Positions 54,718-64,000 of a DNA stretch of 64,000 nucleotides are shown here, piece by piece. A model generated the notes under the pieces. That model saw only the letters and a program-made list of their open reading frames with translations. It made no database searches and had not been told where the DNA came from. Position 1 is the stretch's first letter; the number at the start of each line of letters is the position of its first letter. The translations under genes and the position numbers were made by a program. This stretch comes from a virus: IMG/VR virus record IMGVR_UViG_3300013104_000002, positions 32,001-96,000 of that record; one strand, 5' to 3'.

Positions 54718-55656
54718 ATGAACAAAATATTTAGATTACCATCAAGGCTTTTTTATGACCTATGGGACAAGGGAAATAACTTCTCTGGTCTTACTGGCGA
54801 AAAGCTTATTGCGGTATACTCTATTTTAAAAAGTTCGAGAGAAAAAGAAGTAAAATATTATTCATATAAATCAAAAAACAATAAAATAATTAGTGGTTAC
54901 TCTTTATTAAGAGCAAAGACTAATTTAAGTCTACATGTAATTCAAAAATATGTTCCTGTTTTAATTGAAATGGGACTATGTTTTATTGATAAAAATGGAG
55001 ATTTTGTTTTACTGGGTAATGAAAAGGTAAAAGAATTATATAACTGTACTAAATTAGTTCCTATTCGTATAGGAAGAAATTTAATTGATACGGCGGATAA
55101 TATTTTATCTGTTAAACTTTTTGCAGCCGAAAAACAACAAAAATTACAATACAAAAAAAGACTAACTCGAAGTGAAATTATAAAGCAAGGGGTTGATCCA
55201 AAAAATTCACAACAATTGAAGAAAGCTCAATCTGTTTTGAAAAGATTTGGTGATATTACTAATTTAAACGAGAAAACTGTTTTATCTGTAGAGGGATTTG
55301 CTGTTCTTAAACATGGCGCGGAAAATAATTTAAAAAATATTAAATCAAGCGGTAATTACATTAAAAGAAAACTTAAAATTAAGGGGCTTGTTAAAACTAA
55401 AAGACAATTTGAAAAAATACAAAAAATGTCTTATGAAGATTATCTTAATTTTAAAAAATTAGGAATGCTAACTTATAGACATACCTATTCAAATGGTTTC
55501 TTAGTAGAAGAAAAAATTTCATCGTTTTCACCTGTTGATTTAATTACTACAAAAGAAGAAAAAATAGTTGAACCTGTTATTATTAAATCTGAATACAATA
55601 ATAAGCCTTATTTAGAGTTTGATATGATTGGGTTCTGGATTAACGGAAAAGGATAA
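54718..55656 (+). CDS. Basic wHTH DNA-binding protein, possible replication initiator
   Basis: GYSLLRAKTNLSLHVIQKYVPVLIEMGL HTH; Lys-rich; near the strand switch. Confidence 0.5.
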   Translation: MNKIFRLPSRLFYDLWDKGNNFSGLTGEKLIAVYSILKSSREKEVKYYSYKSKNNKIISGYSLLRAKTNLSLHVIQKYVPVLIEMGLCFIDKNGDFVLLGNEKVKELYNCTKLVPIRIGRNLIDTADNILSVKLFAAEKQQKLQYKKRLTRSEIIKQGVDPKNSQQLKKAQSVLKRFGDITNLNEKTVLSVEGFAVLKHGAENNLKNIKSSGNYIKRKLKIKGLVKTKRQFEKIQKMSYEDYLNFKKLGMLTYRHTYSNGFLVEEKISSFSPVDLITTKEEKIVEPVIIKSEYNNKPYLEFDMIGFWINGKG

Positions 55657-60647: not shown

Positions 60648-60792
60648 ATGGTATAGAAAATTATTAGGAGGAACTTGGTACAAACATGAAAATACCTTTC
60701 AGTTACCAGGTTTAATATTTGATTATTTTTGGGCTAGATACAATGAATTAAATAGATATACAAAAGTAATAGATATAGAAGAATGGCAATAA
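60634..60792 (+). CDS. Small hypothetical protein (52 aa)
   Basis: Below the ORF-track cutoff: MSRFKWYRKLLGGTWY...EEWQ; fills the gap and overlaps both neighbours. Confidence 0.65.
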   Translation: MSRFKWYRKLLGGTWYKHENTFQLPGLIFDYFWARYNELNRYTKVIDIEEWQ

Positions 60793-61205
60793 AAAAGAAT
60801 AAGATTATACATTGGAAATACGGAAATGAAATTATAGATGATATTTGTAAAACTCCAGAAGGAAGTATCTCTTTTATTTATAGAATTACTTTAGAAGATG
60901 GTAGATACTATTTAGGCAGAAAGACAATGAAAAAGCCTAATTATACTAGCGGTAAGATGAAAGGACAATGTAAAGGCGAGTATAGCTGGCGTAGTTATAC
61001 AGGGTCTTCAAAAGAACTAACTGCACTAATTAAATCTGGAATAAAGTATGAAAAAGAAATTCTAAAATTTTGCTATTCAAAAGCTGAAACTACTTATGAA
61101 GAAACAAAAACCATACTTTGTTCAGGAGCTTTAACAGATCCTAACTGTTTTAATTTTTGGATAAAAGCTACAGTATACTCGAAACACTTAAAAGAAAACA
61201 GTTAA
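60783..61205 (+). CDS. Small GIY-YIG family nuclease
   Basis: FIYRITL..GRYYLGRK...WRSYTGSSKEL...KEIL...YEE...FN. Confidence 0.8.
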   Translation: MAIKKNKIIHWKYGNEIIDDICKTPEGSISFIYRITLEDGRYYLGRKTMKKPNYTSGKMKGQCKGEYSWRSYTGSSKELTALIKSGIKYEKEILKFCYSKAETTYEETKTILCSGALTDPNCFNFWIKATVYSKHLKENS

Positions 61206-61206
61206 T

Positions 61207-61674
61207 ATGAACTACGATAGTAAAGCAGATACATTAGAGCATATTAAAAGAGTAAGTGAATTACTAGGAGAATGTGCAATAAAATTAATAAAAAGAGCAT
61301 CATTACATGATAATTCAAAATTAGAAAGCCCAGAAAAAGAAGGTTTTGATAAAATGACCCCTATTTTAAAGAATTTAGTTTTTGGCACACCTGAATATAC
61401 AGGATCTCTAAAAGAGCTTGAAGTAACCCTAGAGCATCATTATGCAAATAACAGCCATCATCCACAGCATTATAAAAACGGAGTAAATGGAATGGATTTG
61501 TTTGATGTCATAGAAATGTTTATGGACTGGAAAGCAGCAGGAGAAAGGAATAAGAATGGAGATATTTATAAGTCAATTTTAATTAATAAAGATAGATTTA
61601 ATATTTCTGAACAGTTATGTGATATTTTTAAAAATACAGCCGATAATTTAGATTGGTATTTTGTAGAAAAATAA
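61207..61674 (+). CDS. DUF5662 HD-like phosphohydrolase
   Basis: HIKRV...LHDNSKL...HHYANNSHHPQH...EMFMDW. Confidence 0.8.
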   Translation: MNYDSKADTLEHIKRVSELLGECAIKLIKRASLHDNSKLESPEKEGFDKMTPILKNLVFGTPEYTGSLKELEVTLEHHYANNSHHPQHYKNGVNGMDLFDVIEMFMDWKAAGERNKNGDIYKSILINKDRFNISEQLCDIFKNTADNLDWYFVEK

Positions 61675-61685
61675 ATTAAAAAAGT

Positions 61686-61717
61686 CTTGCGTATATCAAA
61701 TAAATTCCCTAAGTTTA
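61686..61717 (+). promoter_or_regulatory. Probable weaker promoter
   Basis: CTTG-N20-TAAGTTTA. Confidence 0.45.
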
Positions 61718-61739
61718 CAGTAATAAATAAAATATCAAA

Positions 61740-62444
61740 ATGAGAGAGTTAAAAAATGACATTCATTACAAAATCACTTTAGACGAAGATCAAAAATTAG
61801 TTAAATCTGATATTTATGATAAAGAAATTGTTGTGATTTCAGGAAGAGCAGGATCAGGTAAAAGTTTAGTAGTTGCACAAACGGTACTTGATTTAATTTT
61901 TAAAGGATACGTAGATAAGGTGTATGTAACCCGTGCAGCAGTTGAGGTTGGTAAAAGTTTAGGATTTCTTCCTGGTGAGCTTTCTTCAAAATTCGATCCC
62001 TATATTGAGGCATTTAGAGATAATTTATATGCGTGTTATGATAAGAATAAAGTTGATAAGCATCTTACTCATCTAAGTGGAGGTGAAGAAAATAAAGACA
62101 AAAATGCTAATAAAACTACAGTTGCAAAAATTGAAGGTATACCAACACAATATATCCGAGGAAAAACAATAGGGAACAGAGAGGTATTAGTAATAGAAGA
62201 AGGTCAAAATTTAACTGAGTTTGAAATGGAGGCTTTATTAACTCGCCTAGGAAAAGGAGGTAGAATTGTAATTAATGGAGATAATGCACAAAAAGATATC
62301 AGAGAAACTTATACTGGATTAGATTTTGCTATAGAATTAGCTAAAAATATTGAAGGCATTGCTTATCATAAATTGAAATCAAATCACAGGTCAGATTTAG
62401 TTGGTAAAATACTAGATTATAAATATAATAAAGTTTCTAAATAA
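61740..62444 (+). CDS. phoH: PhoH-family ATPase
   Basis: GRAGSGKS, LGFLPG, YIRGKT, EEGQN, LTRLG, GDNAQ. Confidence 0.95.
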   Translation: MRELKNDIHYKITLDEDQKLVKSDIYDKEIVVISGRAGSGKSLVVAQTVLDLIFKGYVDKVYVTRAAVEVGKSLGFLPGELSSKFDPYIEAFRDNLYACYDKNKVDKHLTHLSGGEENKDKNANKTTVAKIEGIPTQYIRGKTIGNREVLVIEEGQNLTEFEMEALLTRLGKGGRIVINGDNAQKDIRETYTGLDFAIELAKNIEGIAYHKLKSNHRSDLVGKILDYKYNKVSK

Positions 62445-62447
62445 ATA

Positions 62448-62479
62448 TTTGCATAATTAAAATAAAAGTATTATATTTG
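62448..62479 (+). promoter_or_regulatory. Bacteroidota-type promoter
   Basis: TTTG-N20-TATATTTG. Confidence 0.85.
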
Positions 62480-62485
62480 CAGTAT

Positions 62486-62980
62486 AAAGATTGAGAAAAT
62501 AAAGTGTGGCTCTTATAGATTAGTTGCGGGTTGATCAGTGTTCCGCGTAAAAAATTAACGAGTCGGCGCAAGTTTAGCTTAGAAATAAGTTCCAAGTATC
62601 ACGAAGGCTGGATTAAATAAACTAAAAAACTCTAACCATAATCAATTTTTAACAGAAACAGAAGTTGCCCCAAAATAAATATTCGTAACGTTAAATCGTA
62701 ATAGGCGCACGAAGGAGTTATTCCGCGATATTTATCTTCTGTTTTTATTATTTTGCGCGAAATCTAAAAAATATAAAGATCAAGCAGTTGTATATATTTC
62801 AGAATTAGGATCGTAATTACGCAACTTAAAATAAGTAATTCAAAGAAGACTATGAGTTTTTGACGGTTGAGCCTTTAAAACTGTTCCCTTCCTGCCGATG
62901 AGAATGGCTTATTTGGGTTAAAATAATAAAATAACGTATAGAAAGTAAGGGAGTGAAAAGCTTGAAAGTAGCTCCCTTTT
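62486..62980 (+). ncRNA. Candidate large structured non-coding RNA of unknown class
   Basis: Long ORF-free stretch, GC-richer than other intergenic DNA, bounded by a promoter and a terminator, with many nested helices. Confidence 0.6.
62947..62980 (+). terminator. Terminator-like hairpin
   Basis: AAGGGAG...CTCCCTT followed by TT. Confidence 0.6.
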
Positions 62981-62992
62981 AAATTAAAAATT

Positions 62993-63136
62993 ATGACAAA
63001 ATTCACTAAAGGCTTCACTTATTTTTATAATGGTCGGAAATTAAAAGATTTCGATGAGTGGGAAAAATATTTTAAGAAAGCTCCAACAACAGTAACTACA
63101 ATAATTAAAAACCTAGAAGTGCATTTATATGATTAA
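62993..63136 (+). CDS. Small hypothetical protein (47 aa)
   Basis: AAAAATTATG start context; MTKFTKGFTYFYNG...; overlaps the next gene. Confidence 0.55.
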   Translation: MTKFTKGFTYFYNGRKLKDFDEWEKYFKKAPTTVTTIIKNLEVHLYD

Positions 63137-63623
63137 TTTTACAGAAAGTAATACAGGAGGAATAATTTTTATTTCAAATTTAGGTTTTTCCACAGAACAA
63201 AGTAAAAAAGAACAAGAAATGGGACACCGATTATATGATGAAGCCAGAGAGCAACAAAATAAAATACAATATAAAAACTACTTAACTTCTAAAGAATTAA
63301 GTGACATGGAAGAAGTAAAAGAAACAGGAGTAAAACTAAACCAAGGAAAACCAGAACTATCTTTGTTATTTAAACAGTTCCCAAAAGCTTTAGAGGCAAT
63401 TGCTAAATGTTCCGAATATGGTCATACTAAATATAAAGAAACAGATACAGATTATTTGAATTTTAAGCGTGTTCCAGGAGGAAGTAAAGCCTATGCAGAT
63501 GCTGGATTAAGGCACAGACTTTTTAAGGAAGGAACAACAGATTTAGATAGTCAATTACCACATTCTTTCCATACTGCATGGAATGCTTTGGCGGAGTTAG
63601 AACTTATACTAGAAAATAAATAA
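63129..63623 (+). CDS. dATP/dGTP diphosphohydrolase-domain protein (DUF5664)
   Basis: GVKLNQGKP...ALEAIAKCSEYG..KY...DAGLRH...DSQLPH..H.AWNAL. Confidence 0.85.
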   Translation: MINFTESNTGGIIFISNLGFSTEQSKKEQEMGHRLYDEAREQQNKIQYKNYLTSKELSDMEEVKETGVKLNQGKPELSLLFKQFPKALEAIAKCSEYGHTKYKETDTDYLNFKRVPGGSKAYADAGLRHRLFKEGTTDLDSQLPHSFHTAWNALAELELILENK

Positions 63624-63631
63624 AATTAATT

Positions 63632-63790
63632 ATGAGACTAAAAGTCCATCTAATATCACAATCTAAGCCTGTAGAGCATATAGAAGTTATAAATACATAT
63701 ATAAAATCAGGTATGTATTGTATTTTATTACCTAATGAAGAGGTATATAAATATCCAATGATAAATATATTTAGAGTAATTGAAAATTAA
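63632..63790 (+). CDS. Small hypothetical protein (52 aa)
   Basis: MRLKVHL...KYPMINIFRVIEN; good start context. Confidence 0.6.
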   Translation: MRLKVHLISQSKPVEHIEVINTYIKSGMYCILLPNEEVYKYPMINIFRVIEN

Positions 63791-63799
63791 TAAAAAAGA

Positions 63800-64000
63800 A
63801 TGACAAAAATTAAACTATTATATCTAACTAAAGTAGGTATACGACCAAACGAAATCGGCGAAAAAAGAATTCAAAATGCTTTAGAAAAAGAAAAATCAGC
63901 AGGTAAAACAGATGGTATGCCTCTAAGTTTCTATATAGAAAATAATTTAAGACCGCCAGATGATGTTGAAGACGATCAATCAGAGATAGATGAAGACGGA
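63800..64000 (+). CDS. Hypothetical protein, partial
   Basis: Open from the ATG at 63800 to the window edge. Confidence 0.55.
   Translation, partial: MTKIKLLYLTKVGIRPNEIGEKRIQNALEKEKSAGKTDGMPLSFYIENNLRPPDDVEDDQSEIDEDG

Follow-up and report, generated by a model that had tools for sequence, protein, structure and literature searches.

The locus described here lies in a window of 64,000 nt, which covers bases 32001-96000 of a phage genome of 146,490 bp; this genome carries direct terminal repeats and has a GC content of 30%. Coordinates are those of the window unless they are marked as genome coordinates. Between a gene for a PhoH-like ATPase and a small ORF on the same strand, there is a stretch of 548 bases (62445-62992) in which the plus strand carries no ORF of at least 30 aa (Table 1). 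Among gaps of this kind it ranks first in the window and second in the whole genome, which bears out, for the window, a first-pass annotation of the same DNA that had named 62448-62980 as the largest ORF-free gap. The largest in the genome, of 785 nt, lies outside the window (genome 108425-109209) and is unrelated to it in sequence.

The gap is non-coding. A tblastx comparison with relatives of the locus and with the phage's own genome found no protein-level similarity in it, and a pseudogene or decayed gene was rejected on this ground and because GC and AT skew in the gap are unremarkable. A replication origin was rejected as well: iterons are absent, and the turning point of the cumulative GC skew falls not at the gap but at about genome 86 kb, at the divergence of the gene strands. 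We refer to the space between the two flanking genes as the slot. The gene that closes it starts alike in relatives (MPKFT in L280, MAKY in L287 and L295, MKTQGNFKYF in L008; L numbers designate the loci compared), the clusters of the downstream proteins are all singletons, and a pattern search with the neighbouring 164-aa gene gave no relatives. A SegE-like gene of the GIY-YIG homing-endonuclease type (60783-61205) is found two genes ahead of the slot, and in L006 a further endonuclease-like gene is located within the slot itself; genes of this type may be a cause of the cassette shuffling described below. Judged by PhoH, the closest cultured phage is the myovirus Flavobacterium phage immuto, whose protein is only 37% identical and with which there is no synteny. 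Because the promoter pattern is that of Bacteroidota and the closest cultured PhoH comes from this Flavobacterium myovirus, the host is probably a member of Flavobacteriia.

The gap opens with a predicted promoter of the Bacteroidota -33/-7 form (TTTG and, about 17-21 nt further on, TAnnTTTG; consensus cited in PMC10309648), and the earlier claim that it starts at a consensus promoter is confirmed as far as sequence form goes. Across the genome the pattern TTTG-N17-21-TAnnTTTG finds about 20 such intergenic sites, this one among them. The distance from here to the next start codon is 513 nt; for most other intergenic promoters of the same type it is 4-63 nt, with a few at 112, 197, 199 and about 281 nt. 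Copies that are 79-89% identical occur at genome 127080, 96262 and 87718, and the promoter is conserved in L280, L294, L287, L293, L295 and L010.

Table 1. Features of the slot and its boundaries (window coordinates; "with" joins the two strands of a predicted helix)
Feature	Position	Strand	Remarks
PhoH-like ATPase gene	61740..62444	+	234-aa ORF; Pfam PhoH recorded on an identical contig; upstream boundary of the slot
Predicted Bacteroidota sigma-A-type promoter	62448..62479	+	-33 TTTG 62448-62451; -7 TATATTTG 62472-62479; 20-nt spacer
U1, conserved module, predicted structured RNA	62486..62650	+	homologues in L280/L294, L287 and L295; covariation
U1 P1	62486-62494 with 62642-62650	+	consensus and MFE folds
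U1 P2	62508-62512 with 62560-62564	+	extendable by 62504-62507 with 62566-69
U1 P3	62526-62529 with 62543-62546	+	consensus
U2	62653..62745	+	stem AAACAGAAG (62656-62664)/CTTCTGTTT (62736-62744), continued by ATAAATAT/ATATTTAT; from fold
T-rich/TTTTGCGCGAAA junction motif	62729..62766, core 62751-62762	+	5' box is the 3' strand of the U2 stem
U3, conserved non-coding module	62781..62983	+	about 92% identity to L280 and L294
U3 helix AATTAC/GTAATT	62815-62820 with 62835-62840	+	consensus fold
U3 long-range helix	62850-62861 with 62930-62941	+	consensus fold
U3 helix ACGGTT/AACTGT		+	consensus fold
U3 hairpin	62894-62897 with 62905-62908	+	two compensatory pairs
Terminal hairpin AAGGGAGT...GCTCCCTT, then TTAAATT	62947..62978	+	14 nt before the next start codon
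47-aa ORF (MTKFTKGF...)	62993..63136	+	downstream boundary of the slot

Relatives of the locus and the content of the slot

Relatives of the locus were found through PhoH, by a protein search and from the members of its 90% cluster, which led to Logan contigs; a metagenome scan with PhoH returned only duplicates of loci already known. In the closest relatives, L280 and L294, PhoH is 93% identical in protein and 83% in nucleotides, and the gaps align to that of the window with about 70% identity over about 540 columns (E ~1e-70), the ends being conserved and the middle unalignable. The promoter and the first ~55 bases of the predicted transcript are about 90% identical to those of L280/L294, and homology continues with more divergence to about 62650. 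The stretch that cannot be aligned, 62653-62780, is the place at which both relatives have a canonical tRNA-Met(CAT). More widely, ARAGORN calls tRNA-Met(CAT) in the slot of L280, L294, L293 and L296, and Rfam finds a tRNA in the slot of L280, L293 and L007; Rfam scans of L280, L287, L293 and L288 matched tRNA only. In the window, no sequence reaches the 29 bits of the RF00005 tRNA model, and ARAGORN calls no tRNA either there or in the whole genome.

The remaining relatives differ in what they carry. L287 has U1 followed by other modules and lacks U3, and L295, which was found with a 26-nt U1 probe, has U1, two other modules and the junction motif, and lacks U3 as well. The PhoH protein of L288-L292 is the same as that of L287, but their first module is a different one, and L293 holds yet another module together with tRNA-Met. 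In L296-L300, ORF-free gaps of 354-815 nt are found at the same site. With five IMG/VR loci whose PhoH is 85-87% identical (L006-L010), the gap of the window has only the promoter and the junction motif in common: L006 and L008 have no gap after phoH, and in L010, L007 and L009 the gap measures 440 to ~590 nt and is filled with different sequences. Lineages with U1 or U3 are few in number. No exact 20-30-mer of U2 or U3 occurs in IMG/VR, and the pattern CACGAAGG-N-CACGAAGG, built on a motif that does occur twice in the gap as previously noted, gave only chance matches in that database. By sequence comparison, then, the slot is a site that holds a changing set of stem-closed, apparently RNA-sized modules (U1, U2, U3, two further types, tRNA-Met and a tRNA-like sequence) behind a conserved promoter.

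Some further sequences of the relatives can be described individually. A stem-closed module of about 88 nt (CACATCG...CATGTG) recurs in the same slot of L287 (2942-3030), L293 (2744-2832) and L295 (2920-3010, minus strand), and a further module is common to L288-L292 and L295; neither has an Rfam match in the scans of L287, L293 and L288. In L297 and L298 (2200-3014), the slot is filled by an ORF-free stretch of 815 nt that has a promoter of the same type and contains neither a tRNA nor U1. At 5068-5146 of L009 there is an aberrant tRNA-Met-like sequence with an acceptor stem, a T arm and a CTCATAA anticodon loop, together with an odd D region and a long variable arm, which was missed by both ARAGORN and Rfam (E up to 0.1). 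L007 (2440-2620) and L010 (4956-5149) have a conserved non-coding segment in common (local alignment z = 13.7), including a hairpin with compensatory changes (CAAC...GTTG against CCTC...GAGG). A resemblance of U3 to L010 and L007 that had been noticed by eye was discarded, being not significant against shuffles.

Structure and conservation of the modules

The alignment of U1 comprises four lineages (the window, L280/L294, L287 and L295), in which 22 pairs of P1-P3 were tested and 95.5% of the cells are paired. Its covariation score is 0.417, compared with 0.176 +/- 0.052 in shuffles, none of 500 of which reached the observed value, and sliding the partners by 1-3 columns reduces it to 0.00-0.07. 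Changes on both sides were counted by the tool for eight pairs, five of which are in P1, four of these arising from a 1-nt register shift in the window row; a conservative count by hand gives four covarying pairs (G62489/U62647, G62508/C62564, C62527/G62545 and G62528/C62544). The first of them is G-U in the window, G-C in L287 and L295 and A-U in L280. At the second, the window and L287 have G-C where L280 and L295 have A-U, a distribution that cuts across other shared features; the last two are reversed, to G-C and C-G, in the remaining three lineages. The P3 loop and the interval between P2 and P1 vary freely in both sequence and length. Single-sequence MFE folds recover P1 in all four sequences and P2 in three, and a model of U1 (R1) scores all four lineages at 170-202 bits and finds no further copy of U1 in the 31 sources searched, the window included. 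Judged from this alignment, U1 is a conserved structured RNA with three predicted helices; the evidence is real but thin, since the structure was derived from the same alignment as the one tested and since only four lineages are available.

U3 is about 92% identical to L280/L294 at the nucleotide level, compared with 83% for the adjacent phoH gene, and this high identity could result from recent recombination instead of selection. A 1-nt indel relative to L280 occurs in a sequence that has stops in all frames, and coding in U3 is therefore excluded. The consensus fold comprises seven helices. In one hairpin (62894-97/62905-08), GCCG...TGGC is replaced by AGCG...TGCT, which amounts to two compensatory pairs; two further paired changes are from G-C to G-U, and three variable paired columns break the pair in one sequence. 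The covariation score observed for U3 is reached by 58 of 500 shuffles and is not significant, and the two compensatory pairs in a single hairpin are only suggestive of structure. Covariation among homologues, which the first-pass annotation had named as a check, accordingly gives a divided answer: U1 exceeds both shuffled and slid controls across its four lineages, U3 does not reach significance, and compensatory base pairs beyond the controls are found in U1 only. The window, L280 and L294 do not differ in the last 43 nt of U3, which contain the terminal hairpin. This hairpin had been taken for the terminator of the unit. An intrinsic terminator is defined here as a short GC-rich hairpin with a loop of 3-8 nt and a U run directly after it; the hairpin at 62947-62978 has an 8-bp stem, a 16-nt loop and ~4 U, and a standard terminator scan of 61500-64000 returned 0 sites, so that the claim was not upheld.

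Between the two conserved modules, the U2 stem encloses 71 nt without a homologue, and U2 could be a filler. The same frame, of the form ACAGAAG...CTTCTGTTT plus T-tract plus GCG, surrounds unrelated sequence in L281, L282 and L010. The junction motif that overlaps its 3' end, which may also be written T-rich/(C)GCGCGAAA, has about 25 copies in the genome at E < 1 (nhmmer profile), some eight of which fall in gene junctions, at 9-36 nt ahead of a start codon, and it is present in L010, L281, L282, L287 and L295 as well. Since most copies lack an upstream partner strand, the motif is not a classical terminator, and its interpretation as a general terminator composed of a stem and a U tract was rejected because, at the copies elsewhere in the genome, an upstream partner is no more frequent than chance. 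By its placement it is a general gene-junction signal, which may be a phage-specific promoter, an operator or a processing site. Copies of the motif are often palindromic (TTTTTCGCGCGAAAA), and a weaker copy is found in the window at 55096-55134.

Folding energies and database scans were examined for the gap as a whole. The z-score of the folding energy is +2.13 for the entire gap, +1.12 for 62486-62760 (U1 and U2) and between -0.31 and +0.96 for sub-pieces, so that in comparison with shuffles there is no signal on either strand or in any sub-piece of the gap. The individual helices listed earlier fared well: MFE or consensus folds contain GCGG/CCGC, AAACAGAAG/CTTCTGTTT, ATAAATAT/ATATTTAT, AATTAC/GTAATT and ACGGTT/AACTGT. 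The cmscan against Rfam that had been recommended was run on the whole window and gave 0 matches at the gathering thresholds; a permissive scan of 62300-63100 (E up to 10) returned only chance-level matches to Lnt and snR91, and none to GOLLD, ROOL, OLE, HEARO or tRNA.

Interpretation of the gap

We consider it probable that the gap encodes small structured non-coding RNAs in an accessory, shuffled array, which occupies a tRNA slot between phoH and the next gene. The non-coding status of the gap, the form of its promoter, the modular homology with relatives, the covariation in U1 and the use of the slot for tRNA are the observations on which this reading builds, and to these we add transcription, processing and an action in trans of the modules, all of which we infer. 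The same reading is further favoured by a second cassette in this genome (described below), by the long distance of the promoter from the next start codon and by U3 being more conserved than phoH. Under such a scheme, host RNA polymerase would start at the strong sigma-A-type promoter, at about 62486 if the consensus is a guide, and the transcript would fold module by module, each closed by its own terminal stem. U1 (~165 nt) would form the conserved RNA of three helices. U2 would be an insert closed by a stem, the 3' strand of which continues into a U-rich tract, probably a partial stop or a processing point, and it would have replaced in this phage the tRNA-Met of the closest relatives. U3 (~200 nt) would follow as the other conserved module, its final hairpin lying immediately ahead of the next gene. 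By analogy with RNAs C and D of phage T4, the modules would probably be cut from a common precursor and act in trans; a role tied to tRNA, to translation or to host defence is our guess.

One alternative, which we regard as unlikely, is that the gap serves as a long 5' leader or attenuator, as the first-pass annotation had suggested, and that alternative pairings at the terminal hairpin control the small ORF downstream together with a gene of the dGTP/dATP pyrophosphohydrolase type. The hairpin of U3 is well placed for this, as it lies 14 nt before the start codon and is followed by U residues, and the invariance of the terminal 43 nt in three sequences points in the same direction. The competition proposed for it, in which TTCCCTT at 62884 takes up AAGGGAG, is possible as a pairing in the window, but the competing arm is weakened to TCCCCTT in L280 and L294. 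A riboswitch or attenuator should be constantly associated with its gene, whereas the same downstream gene family is found without U3 in L287, L293 and L295, where the junction motif precedes it, and without any gap in L006 and L008. Moreover, Rfam scans of the window revealed no riboswitch or leader family, and the null result of the terminator scan also speaks against a leader.

It seems doubtful, too, that the gap encodes one multi-domain RNA of ~490 nt in the manner of GOLLD or ROOL, with U1 as its 5' domain, U3 as its 3' domain and a swappable linker (tRNA-Met or U2) in between, which might self-assemble. The order U1-middle-U3 with conserved ends is indeed common to the window, L280 and L294, and both GOLLD and ROOL are often located near tRNA islands, the linker of GOLLD being able to hold tRNAs (bioRxiv 10.1101/2024.12.08.627333). 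However, U1 occurs without U3 in L287 and L295 and is followed there by other modules, no match to GOLLD, ROOL, OLE or HEARO emerged even from the permissive Rfam scan, and the folding energy is no better than that of shuffles. Nor are the proposed long-range contacts conserved: the pseudoknot AGTTGCG/CGCAACT between U1 and U3 loses two of its seven pairs in L280, where 5 bp are left, and its U1 strand is equally conserved in phages without U3, while AAGGCT/AGCCTT has its 5' partner in a stretch that aligns poorly or not at all with relatives and its 3' partner changed to AGTCTT in L280. The single ornate RNA of ~490 nt that had been claimed is consequently not the reading we prefer, as U1, the middle and U3 are differently distributed, have no Rfam match and fold no better than shuffles. 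What survives of the broader claim of a large structured phage RNA is the non-coding gap with its promoter, the covariation in U1 and the tRNA slot, although not as one unit of that length. We keep as a long shot the idea that U1 and U3 are the two arms of a compact scaffold of ~490 nt, GOLLD/ROOL-like in kind, whose middle linker presents exchangeable cargo (tRNA-Met or U2), and that this group of phages maintains a recombining library of RNA modules (U1-U5, tRNA and tRNA-like), because the order U1-tRNA-U3 in L280/L294 recalls GOLLD.

We also give little credence to non-functional debris, that is, a recombination scar with decayed tRNA or other RNA genes at a hot spot near the homing-endonuclease-type gene, retained for the sake of its promoter. 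The absence of the tRNA-Met from this phage, the lack of a homologue of U2, the differences in the slot even among contigs encoding the same PhoH protein, the SegE-like GIY-YIG gene two genes upstream and the null folding z-scores would all suit such a scar. On the other hand, debris would hardly keep three helices by compensatory changes in four lineages, as U1 does, or be more conserved than the adjacent coding gene, as U3 is, and no residual tRNA signal is left in the gap (E up to 10). Finally, it is very improbable that the 39-nt unit 62787-62825 (GTTG...CAAC) is a solitary CRISPR repeat serving as an RNA anti-CRISPR: it has GTTG/CAAC termini, lies within a non-coding unit behind the promoter and differs by two or three substitutions from its counterparts in L280 and L294, but 185,579 species genomes contain no exact match to the first 23 nt, and 401 Flavobacteriaceae genomes no array-like or convincing match to a 60-nt stretch spanning the unit (both searches being of limited sensitivity). 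Around the best Flavobacteriaceae match, a single site, TRF detected no repeat array, and the unit folds no better than shuffles.

Known phage RNAs and similar sequences elsewhere in the genome

Phage T4 makes the stable RNAs C and D (species 1 and 2) together with its tRNAs. The shuffled array proposed here resembles them in that small structured RNAs other than tRNA are placed by phage tRNA genes, with a shared promoter and near free-standing homing-endonuclease genes; it is not expected to be related to them in sequence and differs in the phylum of the host and in the shuffling of modules among relatives, and co-transcription and processing, demonstrated in T4, would here follow by inference. 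Non-coding RNAs that phages encode near tRNA genes, such as RNAs C and D of T4, ROOL and GOLLD, are long-standing puzzles, with no function known to us.

GOLLD consists of a less conserved 5' region, a linker that can hold tRNA and a conserved 3' region, it is found in phage tRNA islands, and its representative env-38 lies downstream of a Met-tRNA (bioRxiv 10.1101/2024.12.08.627333). With GOLLD and ROOL the gap shares an ORF-free stretch encoded by a phage and a location among tRNA genes, given that the slot holds tRNA-Met in L280, L294, L293, L296 and L007, and the layout of GOLLD resembles the succession U1, tRNA-Met and U3 in L280 and L294. In contrast to them, it gives no covariance-model match, measures ~490 nt compared with ~580 to >800 nt, and is made of modules that occur independently of each other; there is no evidence in the gap of extensive pseudoknots or multimerisation. 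Phage tRNAs and tRNA-like RNAs (RF00005) have in common with the modules the same slot, the promoter type and closure by an acceptor-like terminal stem, but nothing in the gap scores as a tRNA (E up to 10), and U1, at ~165 nt, has a different helix layout.

Phage morons are independent insertions of promoter, gene and terminator between conserved genes. The array is likewise an accessory unit with its own predicted promoter between two conserved genes, and is absent in L006 and L008; unlike a moron, it carries RNA modules as its cargo instead of a protein gene, and has a weak or atypical terminator. In Bacteroidota phages, the shuffling of cassettes apparently extends from protein morons to RNA genes. 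The locus offers a small and tractable case, with at least two new candidate RNA families without an Rfam counterpart behind a host-type promoter. Moreover, its natural variants, in which the tRNA, U2 and other modules are swapped or the array is absent, make the function of tRNA-island RNAs testable by comparison of similar phages.

The promoter and the first bases of the predicted transcript recur at genome 127080 with 88% identity over 48 nt. They belong there to a second non-coding cassette (L002:1497-1811, equivalent to genome 127076-127391), which lies outside the window and includes a tRNA-like RNA (genome 127120-127244) scoring 27.9 bits (E 7e-5) against the RF00005 cut-off of 29. Its acceptor, D and T arms are present, and the region of the anticodon arm contains an insert of 65 nt. 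Downstream of it the cassette continues with the same T-rich/TTTTGCGCGAAA junction motif as in the window, a non-coding stretch of ~120 nt, itself closed by a stem of 10 bp (AACAAAGAGT/ACTCTTTGTT), and an ORF of 50 aa. A second sub-threshold tRNA-like sequence, of 23.4 bits, is found at G000:C1:6577-6635 (L145).
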